From a virus, in IMG/VR virus record IMGVR_UViG_3300035670_000709: a stretch of 35,933 nucleotides of DNA; one strand, given 5' to 3'. The position numbers were made by a program, and so were the translations under genes. The notes under the pieces were generated by a model. That model ran no database searches and was not told the origin of the DNA. It saw nothing but the letters and a program-made list of their open reading frames with translations. Positions 3,107 through 35,395 of this stretch are shown here, in pieces; position 1 is the stretch's first letter, and the number at the start of each line of letters is the position of its first letter.

Positions 3107-3410
3107 TTTTGTCGCCCTCAACTGCAAAAAGTTCATTATCCGGTACCACATGGCGTTTTCCGGCGAACGTCGCGAAGATGGACGGCCGAAAGAAAACGTG
3201 GCAGCGGCGCGCAAGGTGGCGGATGCGACCACCGAGGCGATTATCAACGGCACCGATTTGCCGATGCGCGATGTACCTAAGTATTTGCAGGCCGAATACT
3301 TAAAAAACGTTGAGATTGACCGAGCGATGTTTGCTAATTTTGGCAAAGCGATGTTTGACACGCGGAAACGGTACAACTGGCTGACTGGATACCTGAATGA
3401 TAAAATTTGA
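3093..3410 (+). CDS. Hypothetical protein (105 aa)
   Basis: Internal ATG (METSNF...) of track ORF 3012..3410. The longer version would overlap the upstream nuclease gene by 95 nt; this start overlaps by 14 nt. Confidence 0.5.
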   Translation: METSNFVALNCKKFIIRYHMAFSGERREDGRPKENVAAARKVADATTEAIINGTDLPMRDVPKYLQAEYLKNVEIDRAMFANFGKAMFDTRKRYNWLTGYLNDKI

Positions 3411-3437
3411 TTATTAAACTTTTTTAACTTAAATTTG
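3406..3437 (+). promoter_or_regulatory. Bacteroidota-type promoter candidate (-33 TTTG, -7 TAAATTTG)
   Basis: TTTG at 3406-3409 and TAAATTTG (TAnnTTTG consensus) at 3430-3437, 20 nt apart. The ATG at 3442 is only 4 nt downstream. Confidence 0.45.
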
Positions 3438-3441
3438 CACC

Positions 3442-3543
3442 ATGTCAACGACAGCAACCATGAACTTAATTATTCTTGTATTCGCGGCTTACATGCTGCT
3501 TTGCGCGATTCAGCGCTGGGACGATCGGAAATCTAACCGTTAA
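3442..3543 (+). CDS. Small single-pass membrane protein (33 aa)
   Basis: My translation is MSTTATMNLIILVFAAYMLLCAIQRWDDRKSNR. It is below the ORF-track size cut-off and fills an otherwise empty gap behind a promoter-like box. Confidence 0.4.
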   Translation: MSTTATMNLIILVFAAYMLLCAIQRWDDRKSNR

Positions 3544-3562
3544 AATTTAAAACTTTACAACT

Positions 3563-3782
3563 ATGGAAAAAGAACAAAAGCAGCCCCCCCTACCCGTGGG
3601 ACGAAGCGCCCGAATGGGCTAACTATGCGGCTACGGACTGGGATGGTCAAATGTATTGGTTCGCAAATGAGCCAAAAAAGGTAACGAGCTGGATAGGACA
3701 AGTAGGCTTAACCCGTCACATTAAATCGGCTGGAACAATAATACCTAATGCCGAAGAAACCTTAGAATCACGTCCAAAATAA
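3563..3782 (+). pseudogene. Frameshifted small gene (MEKEQKQPP / PYPWDEAPEWANYAATDWDGQMYWFANEP...), broken at a C7 run
   Basis: The ATG at 3563 reads 9 codons into the C7 run at 3584-3590 and stops at 3620-3622. The +1 frame is open from 3543 to the stop at 3780-3782, has no usable start codon, and encodes a W/D-rich sequence that looks like a real protein. Confidence 0.5.
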
Positions 3783-3789
3783 ATTTACG

Positions 3790-4677
3790 ATGACAAAGCA
3801 GGACAAACAAAAAGAAATCCGCGGCTGGATAATGGTGGCCGCGCTCGGCGCTACCCTTTACTTCGCAGCCCCGTTCACGTGGCGCAAGGGCAAAGCGACC
3901 CGCACGATGGAAATACCGGAATCTAATCCCGTCGATTTCGACGGAAATAAAACATATCCCGACGGCTATGAAGCCTATCCGCCATACGAACCCGACCCAA
4001 GCGCTGAAGTTCAGCCCGAAGGCAATGTCCGGGTGTCGACGGCGGAAGCTGGCAGCGGAATGGGTAACGGCATCCGTGAAGCCGTGCGGCGAATTTCAGG
4101 CGCTCAACAACAAGCGAGCGAATGGCAAACCGAAAGCGGCGATATAAATGTTTTCAAAATTGTGATTTGCGAAACAAAGCGGCGCGAAGCGATGGGACGA
4201 CCCGGGCAGGAATTGGAGCGCTATAAGGACGGCGATACTTGGGCGATTGGATACGGCAATCACATTAAGTATTTATCAGCCGGATGGAAAAACACGATCA
4301 AGAAACAGGGCTACAAAGTAACTGAATCGCAAGCGCGCGAAATGATGTACCAAACCTTCCATGATCTCGGAGAGCAGATCAAAAAGGATTTACCGGGGCT
4401 GAATCACCGCCAACAATGGGCGGTTAAATCTTTGGCCTTTAACTGGGGCTACGGGAATGTGAAGCGGTCTAAACTGTGGCCGCATCTAAAGAAAGGTAAG
4501 CAAGGGCTTGCAGTTACGGCTGCATGGATGCGTACACAAGTGGCAACCGAGAACCACAAGCAAAGCCGACGGCTGGAATTAGCATTGTGGCATGGAGAGG
4601 ACGCGACGGCGCTAACGATCGGGAAAAAGGCGTATCAAAAATTACAAAAACGTGGAGATTTTGAGCACTATGAGTGA
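3790..4677 (+). CDS. Membrane-anchored GH24 (T4/lambda-type) lysozyme
   Basis: N-terminal Gly/Ala-rich TM segment GWIMVAALGATLYFAAPF, then a Pro/Glu-rich linker. The C-terminal domain has ELERYKDGDTWAIGYGNH and QQWAVKSLAFNWGYGNV, matching Y.D..G..TIGYGH and AL.S.AFN.G of phage lysozymes. Confidence 0.7.
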   Translation: MTKQDKQKEIRGWIMVAALGATLYFAAPFTWRKGKATRTMEIPESNPVDFDGNKTYPDGYEAYPPYEPDPSAEVQPEGNVRVSTAEAGSGMGNGIREAVRRISGAQQQASEWQTESGDINVFKIVICETKRREAMGRPGQELERYKDGDTWAIGYGNHIKYLSAGWKNTIKKQGYKVTESQAREMMYQTFHDLGEQIKKDLPGLNHRQQWAVKSLAFNWGYGNVKRSKLWPHLKKGKQGLAVTAAWMRTQVATENHKQSRRLELALWHGEDATALTIGKKAYQKLQKRGDFEHYE

Positions 4678-5218
4678 AAACGGCCTTATTATCGGACTTG
4701 CAGGCAAAGCCGGCCACGGTAAAAACTATGTGGCGAACGTGCTTTGCGATTACTACCCGGGGATGCGCTTTCGGAAGGTGGCCTTTGCTGATCCGCTCAA
4801 ACAGGTGTATTCGACTATCAGCGGGGAAACGGTCGAGGATTCGCTGGAATGGAAAAACGGAATGTCGGACTTTGGAATGACGCGCCGCGAGGCTTTTCAG
4901 AAGATCGGCACGGATTTATTCCGAAAGCATTTCCATGAAGATATTTGGATATACGCGCTGTTTTCCGCGCTGGACTTTACCCAGAACTATATCATTACCG
5001 ACGTGCGCTTCCTGAATGAGGTAAACGCCATACAGAATGCGGGCGGTGTGGTATTCCGGGTATCGCGACCTAATTACGAAAGCGGCACACCGGCGCACGA
5101 ATCAGAAGAAGCGATTGATCTACTCAACCTTGAAACCATCATTAACCCGGGCAACGGGGATTTGGCTATTAAGGCACAGATATATGCGCTCGAGGAGATG
5201 GGCAAGATATTCTATTAA
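4670..5218 (+). CDS. P-loop kinase, phage dNMP-kinase-like
   Basis: IIGLAGKAGHGKNYVA (P-loop), FADPLK, QKIGTDLFR and IITDVRFLNEVNAI resemble the T4 gp1-type dNMP kinase family pattern. ATG 4670 overlaps the upstream stop (ATGAGTGA). Confidence 0.6.
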   Translation: MSENGLIIGLAGKAGHGKNYVANVLCDYYPGMRFRKVAFADPLKQVYSTISGETVEDSLEWKNGMSDFGMTRREAFQKIGTDLFRKHFHEDIWIYALFSALDFTQNYIITDVRFLNEVNAIQNAGGVVFRVSRPNYESGTPAHESEEAIDLLNLETIINPGNGDLAIKAQIYALEEMGKIFY

Positions 5219-5222
5219 TTCA

Positions 5223-5259
5223 AAGGCTATTGATCCGCCGTGCGTGGGTCAATAGCCTT
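5223..5259 (+). terminator. Strong hairpin after the kinase gene (11-bp perfect stem aaggctattga/tcaatagcctt, extendable with wobbles), no U-tract
   Basis: Inverted repeat read directly, beginning 5 nt after the stop at 5218. The long track start of the HNH ORF (5230) lies inside it. Confidence 0.4.
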
Positions 5260-5271
5260 AAACATATAAGC

Positions 5272-5598
5272 ATGCCAAAGAGGCCGCCAACACTATCATC
5301 ATTAAAGCCTAAGCAGCCGTGGAGCCACCATAGGACGCAAGAAGAACGTACTACTTACAATACCGTGTACAACACACCACGATGGCGGGCTGTTCGTGAT
5401 CTGATACGGGCGCGTGACCCGGTGTGCGTGATATGTAAGCAGGATGCTACCCACACCGTTGACCACATCGTGCCTATTCGCGATGGTGGCAGCGCGTGGG
5501 ATATGGACAATCTGCAAGGACTATGTAAGGGATGTAACGCCGTTAAGACGGCGCGGCAACGAGCCAACACAAAAGAGGCAAGGCAGGGGCCTATTTAA
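5272..5598 (+). CDS. HNH endonuclease (terminase-associated type)
   Basis: CVICKQDATHTVDHIVPIRDGGSAWDMDNLQGLCKGCNAVKT carries the H-N-H and Cys motifs. Positioned immediately upstream of terS/terL. Start chosen at Met15 (5272), downstream of the hairpin. Confidence 0.85.
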   Translation: MPKRPPTLSSLKPKQPWSHHRTQEERTTYNTVYNTPRWRAVRDLIRARDPVCVICKQDATHTVDHIVPIRDGGSAWDMDNLQGLCKGCNAVKTARQRANTKEARQGPI

Positions 5599-5665
5599 AA
5601 CTTTTTGTTACCTGCCGGAAAATCGGTCGCCCCCCATCACGCAAACGTATGCAAAATTGAGATTT

Positions 5666-6139
5666 ATGCCTAAAGGACGCCCAGCCAAACCCACCACAAG
5701 GCACAAAGCCGACGGCACCTATCAGCCCGTCCGGCACGCTAACCGATTAGAGGTAGCGCCCGCAAAGAATCTACCCGACCCACCCGCCGACTTCGACGAA
5801 CGCCACGCCGCTAAATGGCTGGAACTTACCAGCAACATGCAGGAAATGGGGACGCTCGCAACGCAAGACCTTGATAGTATCCGGGCTTACGTTGTGTTCT
5901 TCTTCCGATTTGAGGACGCCAATGCCGTACTGAATAAACAGGGTACTATCATTGAAACCAGCACCGGGGCGAAGGTCAACCCGGCGTGGCGTATCATGGT
6001 TGAAAGCCAAAAAGAGTTGCGTACTTTGTGGGCGGCATTCGGATTGACACCCGCCGACCGGGCGCGGATTAAGATTGAAAAGCCAAAACCGACTACTTCA
6101 ATACTCGACTTTATGAGCGTGACCAAAAAGGCGCAATAA
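5666..6139 (+). CDS. terS: Terminase small subunit (P27-like)
   Basis: Internal ATG of track ORF 5444..6139, which otherwise overlaps HNH. PPADFDERHAAKWLELTSNMQEMGTLATQDLDSIRAYV...AFGLTPADRARI fits the P27-family pattern. Directly upstream of terL. Confidence 0.75.
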   Translation: MPKGRPAKPTTRHKADGTYQPVRHANRLEVAPAKNLPDPPADFDERHAAKWLELTSNMQEMGTLATQDLDSIRAYVVFFFRFEDANAVLNKQGTIIETSTGAKVNPAWRIMVESQKELRTLWAAFGLTPADRARIKIEKPKPTTSILDFMSVTKKAQ

Positions 6140-6145
6140 ACAGGA

Positions 6146-7867
6146 ATGACCCACAAAGCACAGGAATATATTGCAGGCATCGAAACCGGCCAAATACCGG
6201 CTTGTAAGTGGATTAAATTGGCCGTAAAACGCCACCTAAACGACCTAAAACGCCAAAAAACCGAGGCTTTCCCGTACTACTTTGATGAGGAACAGGCCGA
6301 AAGAACGCTAAACCTGTTCCAGTTCTTTAAGTTCAGTAAGGGCGCATACGCGGGAAAGCCGTTTGATATTATGCCGTGGTTTGCCGCCATTGTGTATATT
6401 TTCTACGGGTGGCGGAAGCCCGACGGCGGGCGAAAGTTCCGAAAGGTGTATATCAAAGTAGGACGCGGAAACGCAAAGACGGAGAACTTGGTGGTGATTG
6501 GGAACATCGCCTTCTTGTTCGACGGCGTGCCCGATTCGGAGATCTATTGGGCGGCCACGAAACGCGACCAGTCAAAAATCGGGTGGGATAGGCAGCGGAA
6601 ATCTTTGCAACAACTTTGCGCGGATAACCCGGAATTGTCCCCAATGCTCAATATTCCGATCGGCCACAATTCCAGCAAGATCAGCAAGCGGGACAGCCTT
6701 TCGTGGGTGTCTTATATGGGTAAAGATTCAAAGACCGAAGACGGATTAAGCCCGTATTGCGTACTGGTGGATGAGTACCACGCATGGACAGACAACGGCG
6801 TGATGGAGGTATTGGAATCGGGTATGGTAAAGTTCCCCGATCCATCAGTCGTGCCGATGACGTGGATAATCACAACGGCCGGATTTAACCCCAACGGCCC
6901 GAACTCGGATTTTTTGAAGGCCTGCAAGAATATGCTTCAGGGTACAATCCAAAACGAGGAACTTTTGGCGTTCATTTACGAACTGGATGAGGCCGACGAC
7001 TGGAAAGACCACGTCAACTGGATCAAGGCAAACCCGGGACTTGGTATATCCGTCACAATGGAAGGCCTGCAAATGGAATTTAACCAGATCACGACGGGCG
7101 GCGCATCGGCGGAAAAGAACTTCCGGGTGAAGAACCTAAACGAGGAATGGAACGCCAAAGACGGCTGGATTGATTCCGAACTTTGGCAGGCCTGCATCGG
7201 CGATATACCGATTGAGGAAATACAGACGCGGGAGTGTTGGGGTGGCCTTGACCTTGCGAACACGAACGACTTCAACGCTTTTGTCCTGTTTTACCCGTCG
7301 CAAAACGCGGACGAAAAACACCTTATCCTGCCATATTTTTGGACTACCGAGGATAGTATAGAGCGCAACGGGAAACGCCGGCCGTTCGTGACACAATGGG
7401 CGGCGGACGGGCTGTTAACGATCACATCGGACAATAGTACGGACTACGAACTGATAAGGCAGGATATAAACCAAATTTGCGGCAACCTTCGATTGCAGGG
7501 CATCGCGTATGATCCGCACTTATCCGGCTACCTTGCGCCGCTTTTGCAGCAGGATGGTATCCGGGTGATAAGCTACGGGCAATCGTGGCGCAACCTGTCA
7601 CCAGCCGCACAGGTATTTGAAAACATGATGCTACGGGGTGAAGTGCTCCACGAGGGCAACCCGGTCGCCGGATGGATGTTATCCAACGTCGCGATGCAGT
7701 ACGACCGCAACGAAAACCGCCTACCGTCGAAAGGCAGCAGCCCGGATAAAATTGACTTTGTTGCGGCGCTGCTAAATGCCATCGGGCTTTGGTTGCACGA
7801 TCGGGGGGAGCAGCGGACGGGCGGGTCGTATTTGTTTGAAGAGGATTCTAAAATTATAAAAGTATGA
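6146..7867 (+). CDS. terL: Terminase large subunit (Terminase_1-like)
   Basis: 573 aa. KPFDIMPWFAAIVYIFYGWRKPDGGRKFRKVYIKVGRGNAKTE matches the conserved N-terminal ATPase region (pf.L.pWQ...fGw....g.R.f...yi.v.R.NGKS). VLVDEYH serves as Walker B. Confidence 0.9.
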   Translation: MTHKAQEYIAGIETGQIPACKWIKLAVKRHLNDLKRQKTEAFPYYFDEEQAERTLNLFQFFKFSKGAYAGKPFDIMPWFAAIVYIFYGWRKPDGGRKFRKVYIKVGRGNAKTENLVVIGNIAFLFDGVPDSEIYWAATKRDQSKIGWDRQRKSLQQLCADNPELSPMLNIPIGHNSSKISKRDSLSWVSYMGKDSKTEDGLSPYCVLVDEYHAWTDNGVMEVLESGMVKFPDPSVVPMTWIITTAGFNPNGPNSDFLKACKNMLQGTIQNEELLAFIYELDEADDWKDHVNWIKANPGLGISVTMEGLQMEFNQITTGGASAEKNFRVKNLNEEWNAKDGWIDSELWQACIGDIPIEEIQTRECWGGLDLANTNDFNAFVLFYPSQNADEKHLILPYFWTTEDSIERNGKRRPFVTQWAADGLLTITSDNSTDYELIRQDINQICGNLRLQGIAYDPHLSGYLAPLLQQDGIRVISYGQSWRNLSPAAQVFENMMLRGEVLHEGNPVAGWMLSNVAMQYDRNENRLPSKGSSPDKIDFVAALLNAIGLWLHDRGEQRTGGSYLFEEDSKIIKV

Positions 7868-8487
7868 AATTCCCCGAATCACAACACGCCCACAAGTGGC
7901 TGGACGGCCTCACAGGCTTAGAGGTAGGCGGGTCGGCGCACAACGCCTTCGGGCTGAACACGCTTAATGTGGACTATACCGACGACCCGAACACGGTGTT
8001 TAAGCAATCCGAGGTGCAAATGTGCGGCGAATACATGCCCGTTGATATAGTGGCCGACGGGGCAAAAATCCCGGTGGCGGATAAGTCTTTCGACTTCGTA
8101 ATTAGCAGCCACGTTATCGAACATTTTTTCGATCCGATTGCGGCGCTAAAGGAGTGGAGTAGGATAGCCCGAAAATATATCTATATTATCTGCCCAAAGC
8201 GTGACGCGCTGGAATCTGATCGGGCGCTGCCATTAACGCCGATCGAAGAAATTGAGTTAAGGCATTCGGGCGACATTCCAGCGCCGGAAATTGACCTACA
8301 CGGCCATTATTCCCGATGGACGCCGAAAACCTTTTGCGATATGTGCGAGGCGCACGGCTTCTTTGTAATTGACTGCCTTGAAACCGACGATAAGGTCGGC
8401 AACGGGTTTACTGTAATATTAAAACCATTACATAAAATTCCGCAACTTCCACCAGTAACGAAGCCTATTACTCAAATACGGCATTGA
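7864..8487 (+). CDS. Class I SAM-dependent methyltransferase-like protein
   Basis: GLEVGGSAHNAFG (motif I-like) and ADKSFDFVISSHVIEHFFDPIAALKEWSRIARKYIYIICP (Methyltransf_11-type post-I/II region). Its ATG overlaps the terL stop (ATGA, 7864-7867). Confidence 0.6.
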   Translation: MKFPESQHAHKWLDGLTGLEVGGSAHNAFGLNTLNVDYTDDPNTVFKQSEVQMCGEYMPVDIVADGAKIPVADKSFDFVISSHVIEHFFDPIAALKEWSRIARKYIYIICPKRDALESDRALPLTPIEEIELRHSGDIPAPEIDLHGHYSRWTPKTFCDMCEAHGFFVIDCLETDDKVGNGFTVILKPLHKIPQLPPVTKPITQIRH

Positions 8488-8511
8488 CTATAAATATCTA
8501 AAGCCTTTATC

Positions 8512-9237
8512 ATGAATCCAGCGGCTATCATGATGTTTCGAGATGAAGAAGACATCATTTACGAAACACTAAAGAAATGGCAGGCAATCGGCATACAAGC
8601 CTTTTACCTTACAGACAACTGCTCTACTGACAATTCCATGAAGGAGGTGGAGCGGTTTAAAGCGGAAGCCGGGGATATTACTGTAAGTATCATGAACAGT
8701 AATATCTTAAACTACCCGGGGCGCGAGGTTTACAACTTCATGAAGGATAAAGCCATCCATTATGGCCATGACTGGATATTTCCGATTGACGCGGATGAGC
8801 AGCCAGCCAGCACGATCCCGGATTTTGATCTGCACAAATACTTGGAAGAATTGGCCGATGCCAGCGAGTTCTACTTTTGCAGTTTTTCCATTCCCTACCG
8901 CGACAATTTCTGTAACGGAAAATCACGATGGCACGAGCCGCAAAGAAAGGTATTCGGGCGGGTGCCGTATGCTTGGACGCTTAGTTATGGCAGCCACCAA
9001 TTTGACACCCAGTTTTCCGAAAAACGGGACGATTTCTTTTATGAACACTACCCTGTCCGTAGTTACGAGCAGTTCAGAAAAAAAGCCATTAACTATATGA
9101 CCGCGATGGTCGGCAATCCCGATCTGCTATACCACCCACACGCGCTCAACCACGAGAAGTGGAAAGAGCAGGGTGAATCCTTTATCGAAAATCTGTACGA
9201 ATCATGCTTATCTACTCTGCAATGGCCGCCATTGTGA
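8512..9237 (+). CDS. GT-A fold glycosyltransferase (GT2-like)
   Basis: AIMMFRDEEDIIYETLKKWQAIGIQAFYLTDNCSTDNSMKEV and DWIFPIDADEQ (DxD-type) match the family-2-like pattern a.v.NEe..i.ewl.h....Gvd.fyi.DN.StD.t....D.DE. Confidence 0.65.
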   Translation: MNPAAIMMFRDEEDIIYETLKKWQAIGIQAFYLTDNCSTDNSMKEVERFKAEAGDITVSIMNSNILNYPGREVYNFMKDKAIHYGHDWIFPIDADEQPASTIPDFDLHKYLEELADASEFYFCSFSIPYRDNFCNGKSRWHEPQRKVFGRVPYAWTLSYGSHQFDTQFSEKRDDFFYEHYPVRSYEQFRKKAINYMTAMVGNPDLLYHPHALNHEKWKEQGESFIENLYESCLSTLQWPPL

Positions 9238-9326
9238 TCTTGTCCACATGGGTCGTTTATGACGCCTTAAAACAGGTTATGAACCGAGAAAAGGCTGAAG
9301 ATGACGACCCCTTTAAAAATTTGTAA
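9204..9326 (+). CDS. Small membrane peptide (40 aa)
   Basis: My translation is MLIYSAMAAIVILSTWVVYDALKQVMNREKAEDDDPFKNL: one TM segment plus an acidic tail. It fills the 98-nt gap between the two glycosyltransferase genes and ends 9 nt before the next ATG. Confidence 0.4.
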   Translation: MLIYSAMAAIVILSTWVVYDALKQVMNREKAEDDDPFKNL

Positions 9327-9335
9327 ATAAAAAAT

Positions 9336-10262
9336 ATGAGAGTACTTATTATCGAGCCGCCCGCACTCGGAGCCGTGGGATATTGGAGGCTGTATCAGCC
9401 CTTGCAAGCGATGCGCCAAAGTTTCAACAACTTCGACTTCGATGTCAAACAGGACTTCAAGGAGGGTGAACTAATGATGTACGACTGGCTGATTTTGGCG
9501 CGGCCTTCTAAGCCGATTGAAATGGAAATGATCGCCACGGCCAAAAAGTTAGGCGTAAAAGTCGCCGTGGATTATGATGACGACCTATTCAACATCCCGA
9601 TCATGCACCCGGCGTTCGATACATTCAACGACCCCGAACGCAAGCAGGTGATAGCCACGGCCGCCGTGACCGCCGATGTGTTGTGGTGTTCAACCCAAAG
9701 CATTAAAGATAGCATTGGGTTGGATAAGGCTATCGTGATTCCGAACGCAATACCGCTTTACTGGCTACCCGAAAAACCCGCGCCGATCACCAAGTCCGCC
9801 GGGTGGCGCGGCCAACCGACGCAATATACGGACGTGGTATTACAGGGGTGGGCTTCCGGGTGGTACGACCGAATCAAAGACGAGCCGGATATGTGGCATT
9901 GGATGGGCTGGAAGCCGTGGCCGCTTAGCCCCGGCGCGCAACACAAGGTGGAGAAGGGGACAAGTATTGTTAAGTACTTGGATTATGTCAAAAACGCGGG
10001 CATCAACTTGATGTGGAAGCCGCTGCTGCCTTCCGTATTCAATGACGGAAAATCCAACATCGCGTGGCTGGAGGCGACAATGGGCGGGGGCGCGTGTGTA
10101 ACAAATTATGCGGGAAAATCGGGGTGGGAGACCTGTTTGCCCGATTTTGATTTTACCGAATCGGTGATACATGACGCGTGGCGCGCATCAAGGGAAAAAG
10201 TTGTAAAAGATCATGACCTTTACGAGCAGGCCTGCGTGAGGTACGCTTGTCTTTGTGAATAA
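9336..10262 (+). CDS. Putative second glycosyltransferase
   Basis: GYWRLYQPLQAM...DWLILARPSKPIEMEMIATAKKLGVKVAVDYDDDLFNIP...ADVLWCSTQSIKD...IVIPNAIP resembles the R...P...L / qR...g.k...D.DD / aD.v.vST..L / v.pN pattern of a glycosyltransferase group seen in surface-glycan loci. The fold call is tentative. Confidence 0.45.
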   Translation: MRVLIIEPPALGAVGYWRLYQPLQAMRQSFNNFDFDVKQDFKEGELMMYDWLILARPSKPIEMEMIATAKKLGVKVAVDYDDDLFNIPIMHPAFDTFNDPERKQVIATAAVTADVLWCSTQSIKDSIGLDKAIVIPNAIPLYWLPEKPAPITKSAGWRGQPTQYTDVVLQGWASGWYDRIKDEPDMWHWMGWKPWPLSPGAQHKVEKGTSIVKYLDYVKNAGINLMWKPLLPSVFNDGKSNIAWLEATMGGGACVTNYAGKSGWETCLPDFDFTESVIHDAWRASREKVVKDHDLYEQACVRYACLCE

Positions 10263-10295
10263 GAATCGGTATGATTCCTTAATAAAAAAAATATT

Positions 10296-10538
10296 ATGAG
10301 TAAAATGCCTTTTACAAATGACGCCTACTTTGGAAGATATAATGAAATATTAAAAGAAAATAACGGTAATTCGATTTTGGCATGGGAGTGTTTAGAGATA
10401 GAGATTCGATATGCCACAAACGGATATAGTAGATTTACGTCTTTTGATCTATTTCAGAGCGCTTTTAATGAATACCAGGCAGGCAATTTAAGCAAAAACG
10501 TATCTTTAACTTATAGGCCTATTTGGTTTAACGTGTAA
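10296..10538 (+). CDS. Hypothetical small protein, paralog 1 (80 aa, AT-rich gene)
   Basis: Shares N.DAYFG.Y...L...AW...E....GY.R..(S/T)(F/Y).(L/S)FQ.AF..Y..G.L with the next ORF. My hand count gives about 33% GC. Confidence 0.6.
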   Translation: MSKMPFTNDAYFGRYNEILKENNGNSILAWECLEIEIRYATNGYSRFTSFDLFQSAFNEYQAGNLSKNVSLTYRPIWFNV

Positions 10539-10544
10539 AACGCC

Positions 10545-10760
10545 ATGCTGAAAAACGCTGACTACTTCGGGGCTTACGGCAAACACCTTGCGTCCGGCTG
10601 CACGCCGCGAGAGGCATGGAAAAAGACCGAACGTGATTTGGCAAAGTTTACAGGCGGGTATAATCGTTACATGACTTACGAGTCTTTTCAGGTGGCTTTT
10701 TCGCGATACAGGCGGGGCGAACTAAACAGGCACCTGCTTCTAAAATTAGTAAAGCCTTAG
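10545..10760 (+). CDS. Hypothetical small protein, paralog 2 (71 aa)
   Basis: NADYFGAYGKHL...EAWKKTE...GGYNRYMTYESFQVAFSRYRRGELN aligns with the preceding ORF. My hand count gives about 50% GC. Confidence 0.6.
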   Translation: MLKNADYFGAYGKHLASGCTPREAWKKTERDLAKFTGGYNRYMTYESFQVAFSRYRRGELNRHLLLKLVKP

Positions 10761-10786
10761 ATTTTTTTTGTGTAGTTGGTATTGCA

Positions 10787-10820
10787 GCCCGTTGACGAAA
10801 GTCGGCGGGCTTTTTTATTT
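10787..10820 (+). terminator. Rho-independent terminator
   Basis: Stem gcccgttgac / gtcggcgggc (10 bp including two G-U pairs), GAAA tetraloop, followed by ttttttattt. Confidence 0.8.
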
Positions 10821-10866
10821 ACCGCGCGTTAATTAGAGGGTACGCACTTTTGCAAAAAATATAGTA

Positions 10867-12228
10867 TTGCGGATATTTGGTTACGATATTTCACTCAAAC
10901 GCACACCCGCGACCGAAAAGCGCACGGCGGGGGGATTTACCGGCCAAAACTATCTGATAGAGCATGCGCGAATGTCGCCCGTAACCAACACCCGCGCGAC
11001 GGACAAAAATATTTTGGGGCTTAGCCCTGTTTGGTCTGCAATCCGCTATATTTCTGAAGGGGTGGCTATGTTGCCGCTGGATGTTTACAGGCGCACGCCC
11101 GAGGGCAACATTAAGACGCCTAACCACCCGCTGCAATACCTTATCGCTGATCGGCCACATCGGTATTACTCAAAGTTCGACTTTTTATCGGCGCTGATCT
11201 CAAATGCGCTTTTGGGTGACGGGTACGCGCGTATCCATTTTGACCAGTCCGGCGCGCCTTACGCGCTCGAGGTTTTGCCGCGCGATATTGTTAGTATCGA
11301 GTTGACCCAGTCCGGGGCGATGCTTTACCACGTTTGGGGCAACCCGGCGCCGGCCACGGTGTTTGGCGGGCTGCAAATTGTCGCGACACTTCAGGATTAT
11401 GAGGTTATACATATCAAGGGGGTATCGTTCAACGGCATTAAAGGCGAACGCCTTACCCTTACGCACAAAGACGGATTAGGGGCGGCACTATCGGCGCAAG
11501 CCTACACAAAGCAGTTCTTTGAAAATGGCGCGGCCGTTGCCGGGGCTATTATCTTTCCGCAGTCGCTGACAAAGGATCAGCGCGACCGTGTGCAAGATAA
11601 ATTCGCCCGCGACCATTCCGGCTCGGATAATGCGGGAAAGGTGATGGTGCTGGATTCCGGGGTGAAGTACGAGAAAATCAGTATGGGGCCGCAAGAGGCC
11701 GCGCTGGTGGACTTCCGAAATTTGAGCGTTGAGGATTGCAGCCGGATCTTCAAGATACCGCTGCACATGCTTTCCAGCCTTGACCGTTCGACGTACTCAA
11801 ACATCGAACAGCAGGAAAATGATTTTTACGCGCATTGCCTGCCAACGTGGACGCAAAAGATTGAGCAGGAGTTCAACTACAAACTATTCACCCGGCTGGA
11901 ACGCGAAAAGCGCCGGGCGTTCGTGCAATTTGACTATACATTCGTGCGCATGGGTGACAGCCAAAGCACGGCGCAACTTATAGCCTCTACCATCCAGAAC
12001 GGGATAATGACCCAAAACGAGTGGCGGCAACGATTAAACCTGCCAACAATGGCGGACGGAAACGAACGATATATACAGCAGAATATGGCACCCGTCGGGA
12101 TGCTTTCTGAATTGTTAGAGGGCAAAATTGAGCAGGCTGAAGGGGTGGACGTAGAAGAGCCGGACGTAGAAGAGACGGACACAGAAGATCAACCGGCGGC
12201 ATCGCCACAAATGACCGACAATGATTGA
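10867..12228 (+). CDS. Portal protein (HK97-family)
   Basis: VWSAIRYISEGVAMLPLDVYRR...HPLQYLIADRPHRYYSKFDFLSALISNALLGDGYARI matches the portal family N-terminal core. Acidic C-terminal tail. Followed by protease and capsid genes. The start is uncertain: TTG at 10867 (track) or the first in-frame ATG at 10972. Confidence 0.85.
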   Translation: MRIFGYDISLKRTPATEKRTAGGFTGQNYLIEHARMSPVTNTRATDKNILGLSPVWSAIRYISEGVAMLPLDVYRRTPEGNIKTPNHPLQYLIADRPHRYYSKFDFLSALISNALLGDGYARIHFDQSGAPYALEVLPRDIVSIELTQSGAMLYHVWGNPAPATVFGGLQIVATLQDYEVIHIKGVSFNGIKGERLTLTHKDGLGAALSAQAYTKQFFENGAAVAGAIIFPQSLTKDQRDRVQDKFARDHSGSDNAGKVMVLDSGVKYEKISMGPQEAALVDFRNLSVEDCSRIFKIPLHMLSSLDRSTYSNIEQQENDFYAHCLPTWTQKIEQEFNYKLFTRLEREKRRAFVQFDYTFVRMGDSQSTAQLIASTIQNGIMTQNEWRQRLNLPTMADGNERYIQQNMAPVGMLSELLEGKIEQAEGVDVEEPDVEETDTEDQPAASPQMTDND

Positions 12229-12802
12229 ACGCAGGTATATTAATTCGGATTTTGAAATCCGGGCAAAAGACGGGAAAAAGACGCTTCGCGGCTATGCGCT
12301 GAAATTCGGCGTGCCTTACGACATGGGCTTCTTTACAGAAGAAATAGCGGCGGGCGCACTTGATGAGGCGGATATGTCGGATGTTCGCATCCTGTTCAAC
12401 CACGACCCTAATTTGATTTTGGGGCGCACGAGTGCAGGAACGGCGCGGATAGCCATTGACAAGACCGGGCTTTTTTATGAGGCGGAATTGCCCGATTCCC
12501 CCAACGGGGAAAACGTCCGGGTGGCATTGGAGCGCGGCGATATTACCCAAAGTTCCTGGGGTTTTCAGTTGGAATATGATTACGAAAACCCGCCCGCTGA
12601 ATGGACGCGAAAGGACGGGAAAGACTACCGCACAATCACAAAGGTCAAGCGCGTATTTGACGCATCGCCCGTGACCTTCCCAGCAAACCCGGATACCACG
12701 GCGGCGCAACGCTCGCTGGATGAGTACAAAAAGCGTTTGCAGGAATCTGAAATGAAATCTAAACTGGCTGAAATCGACTGCATTTTAGCCTCGTGCCAAT
12801 AA
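12221..12802 (+). CDS. Prohead maturation protease (HK97 / S78-type)
   Basis: LRGYALKFGVPYDMG.FTEEIAAGAL...VRILFNHDPNLILGR...GLFYEAELPDS...GDITQSSWGF fits the S78 pattern with His (NHD) and Ser (SSWGF). Overlaps the portal stop by 8 nt. Confidence 0.85.
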   Translation: MIERRYINSDFEIRAKDGKKTLRGYALKFGVPYDMGFFTEEIAAGALDEADMSDVRILFNHDPNLILGRTSAGTARIAIDKTGLFYEAELPDSPNGENVRVALERGDITQSSWGFQLEYDYENPPAEWTRKDGKDYRTITKVKRVFDASPVTFPANPDTTAAQRSLDEYKKRLQESEMKSKLAEIDCILASCQ

Positions 12803-12814
12803 ATTTATCACATT

Positions 12815-14206
12815 ATGAAAAACAAACTCGAAGCGCAGCAAAGCGCAGCGGCAGCCGCACAGCAGATCGAAAATCTGCGGGCTAAGGCCGAATCCGGGCA
12901 ATGGGGCGAGGCTGATCAAGCAGCCCTTGAAGCCGCAAAATCTCAACTCAAAACCAGCCAAGAGGCCGAACGCCGCTTCGCCGAATTTGAGGCACTGGAA
13001 TTGGCAACCAGTACCTACAAGACCGGACAGGAGCAGCGCAGCGAAACCACAACCGCCGCAAACCCTATGACCGTGAACATTATCAAGAGCGAAAACCGGG
13101 GCGACAGCGAAGAGCGCATGGCGCAACGCTTCAGCCTGTTTGATGCCGTGCGCGATGCCGCATACGGTAAGAATCTCACAGGCCTTTCCGCCGAAATTGA
13201 CCAGCAGGGCAAAATGGAAGCGCGCAAAGCCGGGATCACCGACTACGGCACGGGTTCAATCACCCTGCCTGCCTTCATGGTGGCCAACCAGCGCACGATC
13301 GAAAAGCGCGACAAGCGCACGATCGAAAAGCGCGACATGCTTGCAGGTACTACCACGGCTGGCGGGTTTACCGTTCAGACCGAGGTTGGTGAACTGATCC
13401 CGTTCCTTGACCCGCGTTTGACGGTTCGCCAGCTGGGCGCTACCTACCTGACCGGGCTGACCGGAAACGTGGACTTCCCGCGAAACGATGCCGCCGCCGC
13501 CGTTGGCCGCAAGACGGAGGTTGCAACCGCCGACGAAACCAGCCCGACGTTCGATCAGGTGCAGTTGCGCCCGGTTCGTTACACGGCCTTTGTGGATGTG
13601 TCGAAGCAGGTTATTCTGCAGTCGAACATTGACATGGAGAACTTTGTGCGTAACCGCCTGAATGAAGCCCTGTTCCGCAAACTTGAAGAAGAATGCTTCA
13701 CGAACTCGGACAACACGGGTATCTTCAATTTGGCCGGCGTAAACGACATCACGATCGGCACCAACGGCGGCGACTTGACGTGGGAACTTGTCGTGAAGTT
13801 CGAGAGCGAAGTGGCGGCCGATAACGCCGACATGGGGCGCCTCGGTTACCTGTTCACGCCGCAAGTGGCTGGCAAATTGAAAACCACCAAGCGCGACGTG
13901 GCTGGTAACGGCTTCATCTGGGAAGGGCCGAACATGAACGCAAGCGTGAACGGCTACCAAGCCTACGCATCCAACCTGCTTCCGAAAAACCTGTCAAAAG
14001 GTGGATTCACCAGCGTGCTGCATGGTGGTGTGTTCGGCAACTGGGCGGACTTGCTGATCGGCCAATTCGGTGGCGTGGACATCCTTATTAACCCTTACAC
14101 GAAGGGCAAAGAGGCTACGGTGGAGGTTATTGTTAACGCATGGTTTGACCACGCAATCCGCCAAGCCGCTTCTTTCTGTAAGTGCGATGAATTGTATCCG
14201 TCCTAA
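12815..14206 (+). CDS. Major capsid protein, HK97 fold, with N-terminal coiled-coil delta/scaffold domain
   Basis: Ala/Gln/Glu-rich N-terminal region of about 100 aa. Then GTTTAGGFTVQTEVGELIPFLDPRLTVRQLGATYLTGLTGNVDFPR and later core motifs typical of HK97-family capsids. Gene order is portal-protease-capsid. Confidence 0.9.
   Translation: MKNKLEAQQSAAAAAQQIENLRAKAESGQWGEADQAALEAAKSQLKTSQEAERRFAEFEALELATSTYKTGQEQRSETTTAANPMTVNIIKSENRGDSEERMAQRFSLFDAVRDAAYGKNLTGLSAEIDQQGKMEARKAGITDYGTGSITLPAFMVANQRTIEKRDKRTIEKRDMLAGTTTAGGFTVQTEVGELIPFLDPRLTVRQLGATYLTGLTGNVDFPRNDAAAAVGRKTEVATADETSPTFDQVQLRPVRYTAFVDVSKQVILQSNIDMENFVRNRLNEALFRKLEEECFTNSDNTGIFNLAGVNDITIGTNGGDLTWELVVKFESEVAADNADMGRLGYLFTPQVAGKLKTTKRDVAGNGFIWEGPNMNASVNGYQAYASNLLPKNLSKGGFTSVLHGGVFGNWADLLIGQFGGVDILINPYTKGKEATVEVIVNAWFDHAIRQAASFCKCDELYPS
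13290..13337 (+). repeat. Perfect in-frame 24-bp tandem duplication inside the capsid gene (agcgcacgatcgaaaagcgcgaca x2)
   Basis: 13290-13313 equals 13314-13337 base for base. It encodes QRTIEKRD-KRTIEKRD just upstream of MLAGTTTAGG. Confidence 0.95.
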
Positions 14207-16027: not shown

Positions 16028-16441
16028 ATGCCTACAACTGGAACCGTTAACGGCCGACTGATTAAAATATATGTTGACAGCACGGCCGTCACATGCCAAA
16101 CAAACAGCACGCTCGAGATGACCATGGAGCCGCGCGAATCCACCTGCAAAGACACGGTGGGCAACGCTGCCGCCTTTTTGGCTGGCCGCACATCGTGGAC
16201 AATGGGCGGCGAAGCCAAACTGGCTTTTGACGCATCGAAAGGCTTTAGCGCCCTTTACACCGCTTGGAAAGACGGCACGCAATTAACGCTTGCTTTCCAG
16301 TCCACGGTATCCGGCGACAAGGGTTATTCCGGCGTTGGCTTCATCACTTCGCTTTCGGCCGACACGCCGGATAATGAAGATTCAACATTCTCTTTTTCCA
16401 TTCAGGGATCGGGCGCGTTGACCGAGTTCACGACTTCCTAA
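16028..16441 (+). CDS. Major tail (tube) protein, phi13/TP901-1-like
   Basis: CQTNSTLEMTMEPRESTCKDTVGNAAAFLAGRTSWTMGGEAKL...YSGVGFITSLSADTPDNEDSTFSFSIQGSGAL fits the q.s.sl....e..d.tsKd......g...w.i..eg / y.G.a.it...... .e..tfs..l.g.G.l pattern. Precedes the chaperone and tape measure genes. Confidence 0.75.
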   Translation: MPTTGTVNGRLIKIYVDSTAVTCQTNSTLEMTMEPRESTCKDTVGNAAAFLAGRTSWTMGGEAKLAFDASKGFSALYTAWKDGTQLTLAFQSTVSGDKGYSGVGFITSLSADTPDNEDSTFSFSIQGSGALTEFTTS

Positions 16442-22069: not shown

Positions 22070-22656
22070 ATATATCCGGGCCAATACGCGCAATTATTGC
22101 GAATGACAATACCGCCAACACGGCGCTGCAAAACCGTGTGTATCCGGGGGTATTCCCGATACAATACACTTTGCCGGCCGTGGCTATTAATATCGTGATG
22201 GTGCAGCCTAACGCGACAAAGACCGGCTCCGGCGACGTGGACGCGGTGATGGTGCAGGTGGACTGCTATGCAGATTCTTACTCGCTGGCTAATAATATTG
22301 CAAAAATTTTGCGGGACGTGCTGGACTACTTCCGGGGCGACGTGCTGATCGGCGGTCAACTGATTAGTATTGACTGGTTGAATTATGAAGGCCAAACAGA
22401 CGCGTTTGAAGAAAAGCCGAGGGAGTATCGCGTTTCTTGCGATTACTCTGTAAGAATGAACCGGGTGGGCGCGATAGGTGATTACGACGGCGAACTGGTG
22501 ATACCTTCCGGCGACAACTTTATTCAGGTGTTCGGGCCTTATGTGGATGACGACGCCGCAATGGCCGACGGATTAACGACAGGACAATTATATGTAGTAG
22601 CGCCGGGGAATGATGCAATCCCGGCCGGAATCATTAAAAAAATTGGTACGCCATGA
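22066..22656 (+). CDS. DUF3168-like (tail-terminator-like) domain protein with shared C-terminal module (196 aa)
   Basis: IRAIIANDNTANTALQNRVYPGVFPIQYTLPAVAINIV...VMVQVDCYADSYSLANNIAKILRDVL matches the l..d..v.alv..RiyP...Pq....P.iv......vqvdcya.s...a..la..v...L pattern. C-terminus is YVDDDAAMADGLTTGQLYVVAPGNDAIPAGIIK. Confidence 0.5.
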   Translation: MNISGPIRAIIANDNTANTALQNRVYPGVFPIQYTLPAVAINIVMVQPNATKTGSGDVDAVMVQVDCYADSYSLANNIAKILRDVLDYFRGDVLIGGQLISIDWLNYEGQTDAFEEKPREYRVSCDYSVRMNRVGAIGDYDGELVIPSGDNFIQVFGPYVDDDAAMADGLTTGQLYVVAPGNDAIPAGIIKKIGTP

Positions 22657-25600
22657 GATACAAATTAGCAATCCTATTTTCTCTTTTCGCGCTTTCGGGA
22701 TCGGCGCAAATTTTCAAAACAGCGGGCATCCCTTACACCGCTACAACGCCTTCGCACACACCGTCGGCTTCCGGTTCGGCGTGGGCGATTGATACCGCGA
22801 ATCTTGATTTGTACGCCTACTACGGTGGCGCGTGGAATCTTGCCGGTGAACGCATCCAGACTATCGGCGGTTGTGCAGCCCCTGCTTACACGCCGGGCAA
22901 AGGCCAAAGCGTCTTCGTTATAAATGGCTGCGATTCGCTGTACTACTACCGTTCGGGCGCGTGGGTGGTTATTAACGCGGGCGGCGGTGGCGGTGGCGGT
23001 GGTGTAAGTGACGGCGATAAGGGCGATATTGATGTGAGTGCTTCGGGTACTGTGTGGACTATTGACACATCGGCGGTCACGAATATCAAAGTAGATAATA
23101 ATGCCATTGACTCGACAAAAGTAGGCGACAAGACGCTTAGCCTTAGCGACCTTAACGGTTCGTGGGGTGTACAAAACGGATCCGTGCTAAAGTGGAACGG
23201 TACTAACTGGCGACCCGCTGCCGACAATACCGGGACAGACGGCAATGGCATTTATAGTGGCGACGGAGATATACCAACCAACACCGACGCGACCTTGCCA
23301 CTTAATAGTTATTTGCGCTTTGAGTGGCCAAGCGGCAATACCGCATTTATCATGGACGATTTTGGCGACACGGTTTATTTGGCCGACCCTTCGCTGGCTT
23401 CTTCTGTTTTGATTTCCGCTTCTAAGGTCGGCCTTCGCTCAACCGGGAATATCGAACTTTGGGGCGGCACAGGTGGTGCAAAGTTGCGCATGTTAGAGCC
23501 TACCGGATCGGGAACCAACTACACGCAAATTCAGGTCGGCGCACAGTCGGCGGATATAACATACACACTTCCGGCAACAACCGGAACAGATGGCCAATAC
23601 CTGCAATTTACGACGGGCGGCCAACTGCAATGGTCAACGGTGGCGGCCGGGGTAACGGATGGGGATAAGGGGGATATTGACGTGACGGCTTCCGGCGCAA
23701 CGTGGACTATTGACACGGGCGCGGTCACAACCGGGAAAATATTAGACGGCACAATCCTGTTTGAAGACATCGGCCAAAACAGCGCATCTAACGGACAGGT
23801 GATTAAGTGGAACGGCACAGCATGGGCGGCGGCGGCGGACAATACAGGCGGCGCGGGTTCGACGGATTTAAGTTGGACGGGTGCTTCTTCGCCTTACATT
23901 CTTAATAGCTCTTCAGGGACGGATGTAGCCTTTGCGCAAGGTACGGGCATTACATTATCGACAACCGATTCAACGCTGACAATTACCAACGCTTCGCCCG
24001 ATCAGACGGTGGCGATAACCGGGGCGGGGATTTCGGTTGTAACGGGCACATATCCGAATTTCACCATAACCAGTACCGAGGCGGACGGTAGCGCAACAAA
24101 TGAAATACAGAACCTTACCCTTTCGGGTCAATCGCTCGGAATATCCAGCGGCACAGGCGTAACATTGCCCGTAGTAGGCGTATCGGCCGGAACCGGAATA
24201 TCTGTATCGTCGAGCATCGGCACGGTGACGGTAACGAATGCCGCACCCGATCAGACGGTGGCGATTACAGGCGCGGGCATCTCAACAGTTACGGGCACCT
24301 ACCCTAATTTTACCGTGACCAGCACCGAGTCAGACGGATCAGCCTCGAACGAGGGTATTTTAGGCGTAGGTGCTGGATCGGGTACGACCGCCACGATTAC
24401 AACAAATACGACAACCGGGAACGCTGTAACTATTGCGGGCGGTGGCATTGTTGCGATTACAGAAACAACAAGTTCGAACGGCGGCACTATCACAATAACA
24501 GCAACTGAAAACGACGGCTCTACGATAAACGAATTACAAGACCTTTCTTTATCCGGCCAATCGCTTTCAATATCGAATGGAAGCGGTGTTACGCTTCCGG
24601 TTATAGGGGTATCGGCTGGAACTGGAATATCCACAAGTATATCCGGCGGCACGGTGACGGTGACTAATTCGGCGCCCGATCAGACGGTCGGGATAACCGG
24701 AACCGGAATAACGGTTGTTTCTAATTACCCGAACTTTGCACTTACAGCAGCAGACCAATCAGACACTAACGAACTGCAAACAATCGCCAACACATCCGAC
24801 GCCACCAGCCACACAGTAACCCTGTCTAATTCGGGCGGGTCGGTGCAATTAATCGAAGGTGCTGGTATTAGTCTATCGACAGGCGGGTCGAGCAGCGCGG
24901 GGACGGTTACGATTGCGGCCACAAATAGCGGCACAGTTACATCGGTGGGCATTACCGCACCGGCCGCTGGCATAACCGTAAGTAATAGCCCTATCACGTC
25001 GAGCGGAAATATTACACTTGCGCTTGCAGATGACCTTGCAGCGGTGGAGGGGCTTAGTACAAATGGAATCGCCGTAAGGACTGCAACAAATACTTGGGCG
25101 ACAAGAAGTATAGCCGTTTCAGCCGATGCCGCTTCAACCGCCGCCCTTAGTATCGGCTTCCCCGATGGCGTATCTGGCAATCCAACAATAAACGTAAGGA
25201 CATCAGCGAGTAGTGTTAAATTAAACGCTTTAGTCGCCACAACTGGCAATATTACGTTAAGCGGAACCCAATCAATAGACGGTATAAATTTGTTTGCAAA
25301 CAATCGCGTTTTAGTGAAAAACCAAAATACCGCGTCCGAAAACGGAATTTGGGTTGTTTCTTCGGGCGCTTGGTCGCGCGCGACCGATTTAGACGTAAAT
25401 GACGAATTGAATGGCGGCGTTATTGTTTACATCAAAAGGGGCACCGCTAATGGTGGCAAATTTTTTAGGCTTACCACTTCTTCAGAGCCGGAAATGACCA
25501 TAAATTCTACCGCGCTCACTTTTTCGGAGATATTTGACGGCTTTACTTTGACCGACGGGGATAAGGGCGATATAGACGTGACTTCCTCGGGGGCTACATG

Positions 25601-27797: not shown

Positions 27798-28451
27798 ATG
27801 AAACACATCATTTTCCTTCTTCTTTTCCCGCTCGGTCTGTTCGCGCAAGATCAGCCCGACACAACCGCCGTTGCTTATGAAAACCGGGGCGGCATCTTCT
27901 ACACGGTCACGAAAACAACCTACCAGTCCGGGCGCATTGTGACGGAAGAAACGCCTATTGGTACGGATACGGCATCGGTAGTCAACGCCATTATCGGGCC
28001 GGTATTTTTGGAGGGCGCTAAACTCGCAGAGCAGGCGGCAAAGGTCGCCCGCATAGCGAAGTTCCGCGCTCAACTTGCAGCGGCCAACACGGCGCTTACC
28101 GCACTTATCGGCTCGGATTATTACGACGTAACAAACAACCTTTTGGCCGCTGAATTTTTGGGCGCTGCTGATGAGGAAACCGGGCAACAGGCCGAATCCG
28201 TGCAATGTATTATGCGTGTTGACGGCGGCGCACCGATTACCGCATCAATCCGCCGAAATGCCGCCGGGCGCTTGGTTTATAGGCAGGGAACACAGAACTT
28301 TATGCTGGATATTATTTCGCGCAACTGGATAAGGATACGCCGTTACGATGGCTCGGATACCATTACACCTGAAATATCGGCGGTGGACTTGTTCAAAGAA
28401 GCGCCAAACCGCTGGGTATCTCTTGATCTAAAATTTATACTTCGCTTATGA
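27798..28451 (+). CDS. Hypothetical protein with Sec-type signal peptide (217 aa)
   Basis: MKHIIFLLLFPLGLFAQ-DQPD has n/h/c regions. The rest is soluble with an Ala-rich helical centre. No family recognised. Confidence 0.6.
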   Translation: MKHIIFLLLFPLGLFAQDQPDTTAVAYENRGGIFYTVTKTTYQSGRIVTEETPIGTDTASVVNAIIGPVFLEGAKLAEQAAKVARIAKFRAQLAAANTALTALIGSDYYDVTNNLLAAEFLGAADEETGQQAESVQCIMRVDGGAPITASIRRNAAGRLVYRQGTQNFMLDIISRNWIRIRRYDGSDTITPEISAVDLFKEAPNRWVSLDLKFILRL

Positions 28452-35375: not shown

Positions 35376-35395
35376 CTCACTTTCATGAGGCTACA

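Follow-up and report, generated by a model that had tools for sequence, protein, structure and literature searches.

Why should a phage carry genes of sugar chemistry between the gene for its large terminase subunit (terL) and that for its portal? The question is raised by the virus record IMGVR_UViG_3300035670_000709, whose 35,933 nucleotides form the window analysed here. In this window a class-I methyltransferase (MT), a glycosyltransferase (GT) of GT-A fold (GT2), a membrane peptide of 40 amino acids (aa) and a second glycosyltransferase, of GT-B fold (GT3), lie between the two genes (Table 1). An initial annotation had placed sugar genes at this point, and the map of open reading frames (ORFs) and the family scans agree with it. 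The answer proposed here, to which we give a probability of roughly one half, is that the cassette is a late-expressed cytoplasmic module which glycosylates, with O-methylation, the virion proteins of the phage itself. Several observations argue for this reading: the ATGA overlap between terL and MT together with a single strong terminator, the position of GT3 at the same junction in 49 of 49 informative loci, the inheritance of the cassette with head and tail genes, its recurrence beside other packaging families, a sister branch of GT3 located in the neck module beside fibre proteins, the peptide-glycosylating relatives of GT2, a genome without integrase or hydroxymethylase, and the precedent of the mycobacteriophages.

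The cassette at the end of the terminase operon

MT, GT2, the 40-aa peptide and GT3 continue the HNH-terS-terL operon at its 3' end, with no internal terminator. The stop codon of terL and the start codon of MT overlap in the ATGA of positions 7864-7867, as the initial annotation had noticed, and the ORF of the 40-aa peptide overlaps the 3' end of the GT2 gene. It had also been stated that no terminator occurs until 10787. The only convincing terminator between 3.5 and 14.5 kb is indeed the hairpin at 10786-10811, whose 11-bp stem includes 7 GC pairs and is followed by TTTTTATTT (folding energy -22.5 kcal/mol); the remaining 17 matches correspond to the chance level (16.9 expected). The cassette closes the terminase transcription unit, and the strong hairpin parts it from the portal and head genes. 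Since the terminator lies between cassette and portal, the cassette is co-transcribed with the terminase genes, and coupling to the head genes would need read-through. Of the earlier proposal that the sugar genes are co-expressed with packaging and structural genes, the fusion to the packaging operon therefore stands, whereas the structural part, with a terminator before portal, is an inference.

A tentative promoter of Bacteroidota type (Table 1) is found in the intergenic gap 3410-3790. Of the three full matches to this motif on the + strand of the window, no other precedes the operon 3790-10760. Over both strands of the whole window this motif has 5 matches for 1.3 expected; its choice depends on the likely host assignment given below.

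The terL-portal junction in related phages

Relatives were collected with a GT3 profile, which gave 80 IMG/VR loci and contigs of other collections. Their loci were read with flanks of up to 9 kb and their ORFs labelled by phmmer and by hmmsearch with profiles of the window proteins. These relatives, more than 100 and metagenomic, come from wastewater and freshwater-type samples. In all 49 GT3-anchored loci that show both flanking genes, GT3 is located between terL and portal. The resulting islands range from 1.8 to 7.6 kb and their content is highly variable: besides GT3 (49 of 49) they include MT in 38 cases, a small protein of the 71-aa type in 30 and GT2 in 25. Larger islands add Methyltransf_24, a TOD1/MUCI70-like GT, a PhyH dioxygenase, a PglD-like hexapeptide acetyltransferase and an ATP-grasp enzyme, and they also hold HNH nucleases and DNA methylases.

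As a control, 76 related IMG/VR loci were anchored on terL instead, with both terL and portal visible. The gap between the two genes is at most 100 nt in 30 of them and 100-400 nt in 31, and cargo of more than 400 nt is present in 15. In the intermediate class a single small ORF homologous to 10545-10760 generally separates the genes (22 of 31). Altogether 61 of the 76 pairs are adjacent or one small ORF apart, so that the earlier statement that terL and portal are normally adjacent holds in this sample. Among the 15 loci with large cargo, six carry GT3 and one an unrelated GT1+GT2 pair; the rest carry a GIY-YIG nuclease, DNA methylases or an exoribonuclease-like gene. The terL-portal junction is a cargo hotspot, and sugar cassettes are its dominant large cargo.

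Two small genes at the downstream end of the window's insertion deserve separate mention. The 71-aa gene marks the downstream edge of the insertion site. It was considered as a part of the sugar system and rejected because it also lies between terL and portal in 22 control phages without cassette. Hairpins comparable to that at 10786-10811 are located 3' of this small gene in several lineages, with or without island. The product of the 80-aa ORF shares 32% identity with the 71-aa protein (E 8e-11). To judge from its low GC content (0.33 vs 0.51 for the genome) and its absence from relatives that are 95-97% identical, such as L012, this ORF is a recent insertion of foreign origin, peculiar to this phage. 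It is probably not part of the sugar machinery.

Inheritance with head and tail genes

The proteins of the window were compared with those of one group of relatives, L001/L004 (Table 1, last column). The two terminase subunits reach an identity of 33-34%, against 60-75% for MT, GT3, portal and major capsid protein (MCP) and 85-93% for the tail tube, which therefore indicates that the cassette travels with the head and tail genes. The converse also exists: in other loci TerL is 55-59% identical to that of the window, GT3 only about 34% and the portal, capsid and tail proteins only 30-45%. These comparisons point to a module swap at 5615-7867, with a recombination breakpoint between terL and MT, and indicate that the cassette is inherited with the head and tail genes and not with the terminase. 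The GC content at third codon positions (GC3) of MT, GT2 and GT3 is 0.57-0.65, compared with 0.54-0.69 in neighbouring genes. This match to the genome indicates that the three genes are long-term residents.

The enzymes of the cassette

GT3 has no match in Pfam or NCBIfam but is recognized by PHROG 7162 'glycosyltransferase' (2.7e-12). An AF2 model built with 23 homologues (pLDDT 93.2, pTM 0.91) adopts a GT-B fold, in line with the earlier description of a second glycosyltransferase-like protein. In the PDB, Foldseek retrieved PimA, SenB, BshA, WbnH and TarM (E 5e-9 to 1e-6, TM-score 0.57-0.68, probability 1.00), and in BFVD viral 'glycosyl transferases group 1' of uncultured tailed phages (TM-score 0.80-0.81). 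The family is large, with 1,117 clusters at 50% identity for E<=1e-30 and about 5,900 for E<=1e-10. The profiles PF00534, PF13692 or PF13524 are carried only by remote members of the GT3 profile search.

GT2 belongs to PF13704 (33.5 bits, gathering cut-off 27.5). The motif W88..F90-P91..D93-A94-D95-E96 is invariant in the family alignment and its DADE corresponds to the DxD motif; the AF2 model (pLDDT 92) shows a GT-A fold. The GT-A/GT2-like enzyme with a DADE motif of the initial annotation is thus recovered. Its best Foldseek matches are the peptide S-glycosyltransferases ThuS and SunS (glycocin), followed by SpsA, and the sole significant sequence match in the PDB is Listeria GmaR (5.7e-7), a flagellin O-GlcNAc transferase. 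The matches to GmaR, ThuS and SunS are confined to the generic GT-A catalytic core (TM-score 0.55-0.59, 13-17% identity), and the likeness to peptide-glycosylating enzymes is at most suggestive.

MT was described earlier as SAM-methyltransferase-like, and it matches PF08241 well above the cut-off (41 bits vs 21.2). The glycine-rich motif I, G-L-E-[IV]-G-G-S-A-H-N, and the stretch S-S-H-V-I-E-H are conserved in the family alignment. MT is the most conserved gene of the cassette (48-72% identity across the clade) and the second most frequent in the islands. Its matches in a PDB profile search are generic class-I methyltransferases only. NCBIfam was also consulted for the substrate: the best match, MftM, reaches 23 bits where the cut-off is 200, and the aligned part is limited to the SAM motif. 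None of these searches narrowed the substrate of MT. A tblastn search of the phage collection gave one marginal metagenomic match for GT2 and likewise one for MT.

The 40-aa peptide consists of one hydrophobic helix (best Kyte-Doolittle 19-residue window 1.95) and an acidic tail. Peptides of 38-42 aa with a similar architecture, homologous or analogous, occupy the same position in L001, L012, L017, L021 and L035, whose GT3 proteins share 33-61% identity with that of the window. No signal peptide was detected on MT, GT2 or GT3.

Recurrence outside the clade

Homologues of GT3 are also found beside packaging genes of other families. In L008 the order GT3-x-MT-GT2 lies just upstream of a ParB-methylase gene and a Terminase_6-type terL. 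L084 exhibits GT3, a T4-type terL, MT and, at a greater distance, a lambda-type portal. In L075 a GT3 homologue is located 1.3 kb upstream of a T4-type terL, and in L081 just before a Mu-type portal.

A sister branch of GT3 is abundant (clusters of 362 and 208 sequences) and belongs to the neck region, where the genes follow one another as TerL, small ORF, portal, protease, MCP, connector, a protein of about 700 aa, another of 122 aa, the GT3 homologue, a Gp80 fibre protein, and the tail-completion and tail-tube genes. The 700-aa protein joins a head-completion domain to an Ala/Ser/Thr-rich linker of about 300 aa and to a fibre domain of the Gly_rich_2 type; this composition suggests a neck fibre that the head-completion part would anchor. 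That GT3 homologues are repeatedly embedded beside genes for virion and fibre proteins argues most strongly for a role of the family in virion assembly or decoration.

The head-completion fusion was seen directly upstream of a GT3 homologue at L177 5541-7634, L175 5230-7578 and L179 3-2051. A distant cassette, L087 3679-8746, comprises GT3, a 201-aa protein, MT, GT2, a UDP-galactopyranose mutase and a radical-SAM enzyme. This set of genes implies that the glycans of the L087 phage contain galactofuranose.

Comparison with known systems

In Cluster O mycobacteriophages an O-methyltransferase and three GTs are encoded between portal and protease (PMC4351075), and mycobacteriophage enzymes reportedly add glycans to the subunits of capsid and tail tube (Freeman 2023, as cited in PMC11600133 and PMC12363180). 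Corndog (Cluster O, gp35-38), Che8 (Cluster F, including gp110) and Myrna have phage GTs within the block of head-assembly genes, accompanied in Corndog by an O-methyltransferase. The enzymes of these mycobacteriophage systems are not virion components; the logic shared with the present cassette is that of soluble cytoplasmic enzymes which use host sugar donors and are encoded beside structural genes. However, the insertion described here occurred at terL/portal and is followed by a terminator, whereas that of Corndog is at portal/protease. In addition, the core enzyme here has a GT-B fold and the host is probably a member of the Bacteroidota, while mycobacteriophage hosts are Actinobacteria. 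Compared with what is known from mycobacteriophages of Clusters O, F and C, the present cassette shares the logic and occupies a nearby place among the head-assembly genes; with non-homologous enzymes, a GT-B core, a different (probable) host phylum and a modular hotspot architecture, it would represent a new variant of such systems.

A tblastn search of GT3 against 50,697 phage records matched neither Corndog nor Che8. The only GenBank phage with a GT matching GT3 is Streptomyces phage KimJongPhill (29% identity, E 3e-6). Its genes 4-6 encode a UDP-glucose dehydrogenase, an MT and a GT, and the MT-GT pair adjoins the terminase genes, as in the window. However, these genes lie immediately upstream of terS and not downstream of terL, and include a sugar-nucleotide enzyme. 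The MT of KimJongPhill is at best very distantly related to that of the window (hhalign E 0.005, probability 7%).

Bacterial systems of cytoplasmic protein glycosylation offer another comparison. GtfA/B of serine-rich-repeat adhesins with their GT-A extenders, GmaR, and SunS/ThuS are soluble GT-B and/or GT-A enzymes of the cytoplasm, which attach sugars to Ser/Thr (or Cys) residues of folded or repeat-rich proteins ahead of their assembly or export. GmaR, ThuS and SunS, to which GT2 is most similar in sequence and fold, belong to this group. Unlike these enzymes, GT2 is devoid of a tetratricopeptide-repeat or peptide-binding domain, and GtfA-type enzymes are absent among the top 50 PDB matches of GT3 by Foldseek. 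Gtr-type clusters (GtrA/GtrB/GtrC) are morons expressed in lysogens, which encode polytopic membrane proteins and lie next to attP and int. They share with the cassette phage-borne glycosyltransferases, including a GT2 enzyme, that alter glycans. In contrast to Gtr-type clusters, the window includes neither integrase nor polytopic membrane protein and the genes are part of the packaging operon.

Proposed function and alternatives

In the proposed mechanism GT3, the universal core gene, would transfer a sugar from a host NDP-sugar onto an acceptor. GT2, where present, may add or prime a second sugar and MT may O-methylate the glycan, so that the product would be short and O-methylated. Other phages would swap tailoring genes into the site (Methyltransf_24, PglD-like acetyltransferase, ATP-grasp, PhyH dioxygenase, TOD1-like GT). 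The acceptor would most likely be a structural protein exposed on the virion surface, with the Ser/Thr-rich fibre as first candidate and the capsid or tail tube as possible ones. Masking or altering the virion surface could benefit, for example, stability, adhesion, or protection from proteases and binding factors.

Several points weigh against glycosylation of the virion. The terminator at 10786-10811 separates the cassette from the head genes. The late timing of expression is inferred, as is the glycosylation target, from genomic context. The junction also takes homing endonucleases and DNA methylases, so that the position of the cassette could mean no more than that the site is permissive. 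The enzymes nearest to GT3 in fold in the PDB have lipids, small molecules or polymers as substrates and not proteins, and the conserved membrane peptide hints at action at the membrane. A comparison of phages with and without island identified no cassette-specific feature in the C-termini of MCP or tail-tube proteins. Finally, no sequence homology with the Corndog enzymes was detected: hhalign of the GT2 profile gave probabilities of 9.4% for gp37, 0.1% for gp36 and 0.2% for gp38, and BLASTP of MT against gp35 an E value of 1.2. The initial idea of a virion modification as in mycobacteriophages is therefore favoured by the fixed junction and by the homologues in morphogenesis modules, but not by any homology with Corndog nor by a C-terminal acceptor signature.

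The alternatives depend in part on what the rest of the genome encodes. The ends of the window are identical over 127 bp (1-127 and 35807-35933, an exact overlap), which shows that this phage genome is complete and closes into a circle; its unique sequence amounts to 35,806 bp. Scans of all its sizeable ORFs identified replication and recombination genes, a deoxynucleoside monophosphate (dNMP) kinase, two lysin-like genes and a full HK97-type head and siphovirus tail module. Family scans of the sizeable ORFs gave no match to an integrase or recombinase, and no thymidylate-synthase-like hydroxymethylase or other base-modification enzyme was matched among the ORFs of at least 150 aa. What this complete genome encodes thus effectively excludes DNA glycosylation and lysogenic conversion. 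The initial annotation had already argued that the genes are not a lysogenic-conversion moron; the missing integrase, the overlap with the terL stop and promoter-like matches that do not exceed chance are in line with this (14 matches in a sigma-70 scan for 10.5 expected; the host probably uses Bacteroidota-type promoters).

The main rival, which we consider rather unlikely, is a remodelling of the host envelope in lytic growth, in which enzymes tethered by the membrane peptide would modify a lipid-linked glycan precursor or a surface polysaccharide. This could block superinfection, prevent progeny from adsorbing to debris or redirect sugar pools. Such a role would account for the conserved single-pass peptide between GT2 and GT3, and the best structural neighbours of GT3 include membrane-associated or polymer-modifying GT4 enzymes (PimA, WbnH, TarM), but polytopic membrane proteins of the Gtr or Wzx type are missing. 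One GT3 homologue is labelled 'O-antigen biosynthesis protein' and far relatives 'cell wall biosynthesis', and larger islands include tailoring genes of polysaccharide loci (PglD-like acetyltransferase, UDP-galactopyranose mutase). However, a complete genome without integrase does not correspond to classical lysogenic conversion, and fusion to the terminase operon suggests late expression, probably too late for new glycans to reach the surface efficiently. An envelope role also leaves unexplained the repeated presence of homologues in head, neck and tail clusters beside fibre proteins. If the target were nevertheless the envelope, this would be an unusual case of remodelling from the late operon of an apparently non-temperate phage.

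Equally to be weighed is the view that the cassette is cargo of a permissive site with an unrelated cytoplasmic target (a small molecule, a nucleotide sugar, or a host protein in anti-defence or takeover), which seems unlikely to us and somewhat more so than the envelope. The fixation of the cassette at this site in the whole clade, with a GC3 ameliorated to the genome composition, does not support it, although the same junction elsewhere holds GIY-YIG and HNH endonucleases, C5 and N6 DNA methylases and an exoribonuclease-like gene, and cassette content varies widely (1.8-7.6 kb). The fold neighbours of GT3 do include small-molecule GTs (SenB, BshA, tetrahydrobiopterin GT); yet the pairing of MT with GT3 recurs beside unrelated terminase and portal families and in neck modules, suggesting selection on co-expression with morphogenesis. 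A DNA hypermodification, in which the GTs and MT would decorate modified phage bases around packaging and so evade restriction, is very improbable. There are known cases of GT-B and GT-A enzymes with 5-hydroxymethyl-pyrimidine DNA as their target (T4; Pyle 2024, cited in PMC12619734), but in a complete genome with no matched hydroxymethylase the DNA would have no hydroxyl acceptor. The cassette adjoins packaging genes, the dNMP kinase 4652-5218 is part of the same operon and GT3 has a weak BFVD match to one 'DNA alpha-glucosyltransferase' (TM-score 0.50). The kinase has no accompanying nucleotide-modification enzyme and is also present in the L001/L002 relatives. MT is a member of PF08241 and not of a DNA methyltransferase family, and the accessory genes of related islands are sugar-tailoring enzymes.

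If glycosylation of virion proteins is the function, it would extend to phages of Gram-negative Bacteroidota and not be peculiar to actinobacteriophages, and a swappable tailoring cassette would recombine both at the terL/portal junction and at the neck. In the literature found, glycosylation of virion proteins by phage enzymes has experimental proof in a few mycobacteriophages only, in which it changes how antibodies recognise the virion. Habitats free of antibodies would require another benefit, such as adhesion to polysaccharide matrices, colloidal stability, or protection from proteases and grazers. A wider proposal, possible but held tentatively, is that GT3 represents a very large phage GT-B family without curated model that glycosylates surface or fibre proteins of virions, and that virion glycosylation is widespread in environmental phages. 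Confirmation would provide a function for a large GT-B protein family now without annotation. Virion glycans would then matter for phage ecology (adsorption, persistence, particle interactions), for structural work on environmental phages and for phage engineering.

Candidate acceptors

The 1709-aa fibre was described earlier as very rich in Ser and Thr, and its composition bears this out (25% Ser+Thr overall, 33-36% in residues 401-800). It includes about six copies of the motif 'DGDKGDIDVT.SG.TWT.D'. Both this fibre and a 217-aa protein (27798-28451) begin with Bacteroidota-style sequences resembling signal peptides (MRYKLAILFSLFALSGSAQ... and MKHIIFLLLFPLGLFAQ...), which is odd for virion proteins assembled in the cytoplasm. 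A C-terminal '...PS' of the MCP was considered as a mark of the cassette and rejected: it is lineage-specific, and many MCPs of island-bearing phages end in '...AIKYLLQA' like those of island-free phages. The MCP gene of the window also carries a perfect 24-nt tandem duplication at 13290-13337. It produces the peptide repeat RTIEKRDK-RTIEKRD, and the protein is 463 aa long compared with 455 aa in close relatives.

Host and other genome features

A Bacteroidota host is likely because Shine-Dalgarno sequences are missing, leaders are A-rich and the closest genome bins are those of Lewinellaceae and Sphingobacteriales. None of the 37 gene starts on the + strand has a Shine-Dalgarno core within 20 nt, and the leaders of these genes contain 42% A (28% genome-wide). 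This pattern is typical of translation initiation in Bacteroidota. Matches in genome bins are limited to four contigs of metagenome-assembled genomes (Lewinellaceae, Sphingobacteriales, 'Obscuribacter' and Burkholderiales bins); of these, at least the three that are short (3.8-22 kb) are likely phage contigs binned with hosts, and the matches count as weak host evidence. A near-identity DNA search of 5200-12300 against 50,697 GenBank phages gave zero matches, and TerL shares at most 34% identity with any GenBank phage among the matches listed. No cultured phage close enough to serve as a reference was among them.

Table 1. Features of the window discussed in the text, with protein identities to the L001/L004 relatives
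Feature	Position	Strand	Evidence or remark	Identity to L001/L004 group
Candidate Bacteroidota-type promoter (TTTG..TAnnTTTG), tentative	3406-3437	+	upstream of operon 3790-10760	
dNMP kinase	4652-5218		directly upstream of HNH and terminase genes; phrog_139, 2.4e-43	
HNH endonuclease, packaging accessory	5230-5598	+	PF01844 8e-9; phrog_589 1.3e-24	
Terminase small subunit (TerS)	5615-6139	+	PF05119 2.6e-19	33-34%
Terminase large subunit (TerL)	6146-7867	+	PF03354, PF20441	33-34%
MT, class-I SAM-dependent methyltransferase, 207 aa	7864-8487	+	PF08241	72%
GT2, GT-A-fold glycosyltransferase, 241 aa	8512-9237	+	PF13704	45%
Single-pass membrane peptide, 40 aa	9204-9326	+	hydrophobicity; same-position peptides in relatives	
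GT3, GT-B-fold glycosyltransferase, 308 aa	9336-10262	+	PHROG 7162, AF2, Foldseek	60%
Low-GC ORF, 80 aa	10296-10538	+	paralogue of 10545-10760 product	
Small conserved protein, 71 aa	10545-10760	+	junction resident in relatives	
Intrinsic-terminator-like hairpin	10786-10811	+	11-bp stem, then TTTTTATTT	
Portal	10867-12228	+	PF04860 4.4e-82	75%
Protease, then MCP	from 12221 (MCP 12815-14206)		ORF map, family scans	70% (protease), 75% (MCP)
Tail tube (major tail protein), 16028-16441				85-93%
Ser/Thr-rich repetitive tail fibre, 1709 aa, candidate acceptor only	22653-27782	+	composition	
tRNA-Glu (UUC)	35298-35376			

The sole sizeable leftward gene of the window, 30844-31521 (- strand, 225 aa), has no family match. 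It borders a divergent intergenic region and could encode a regulator.

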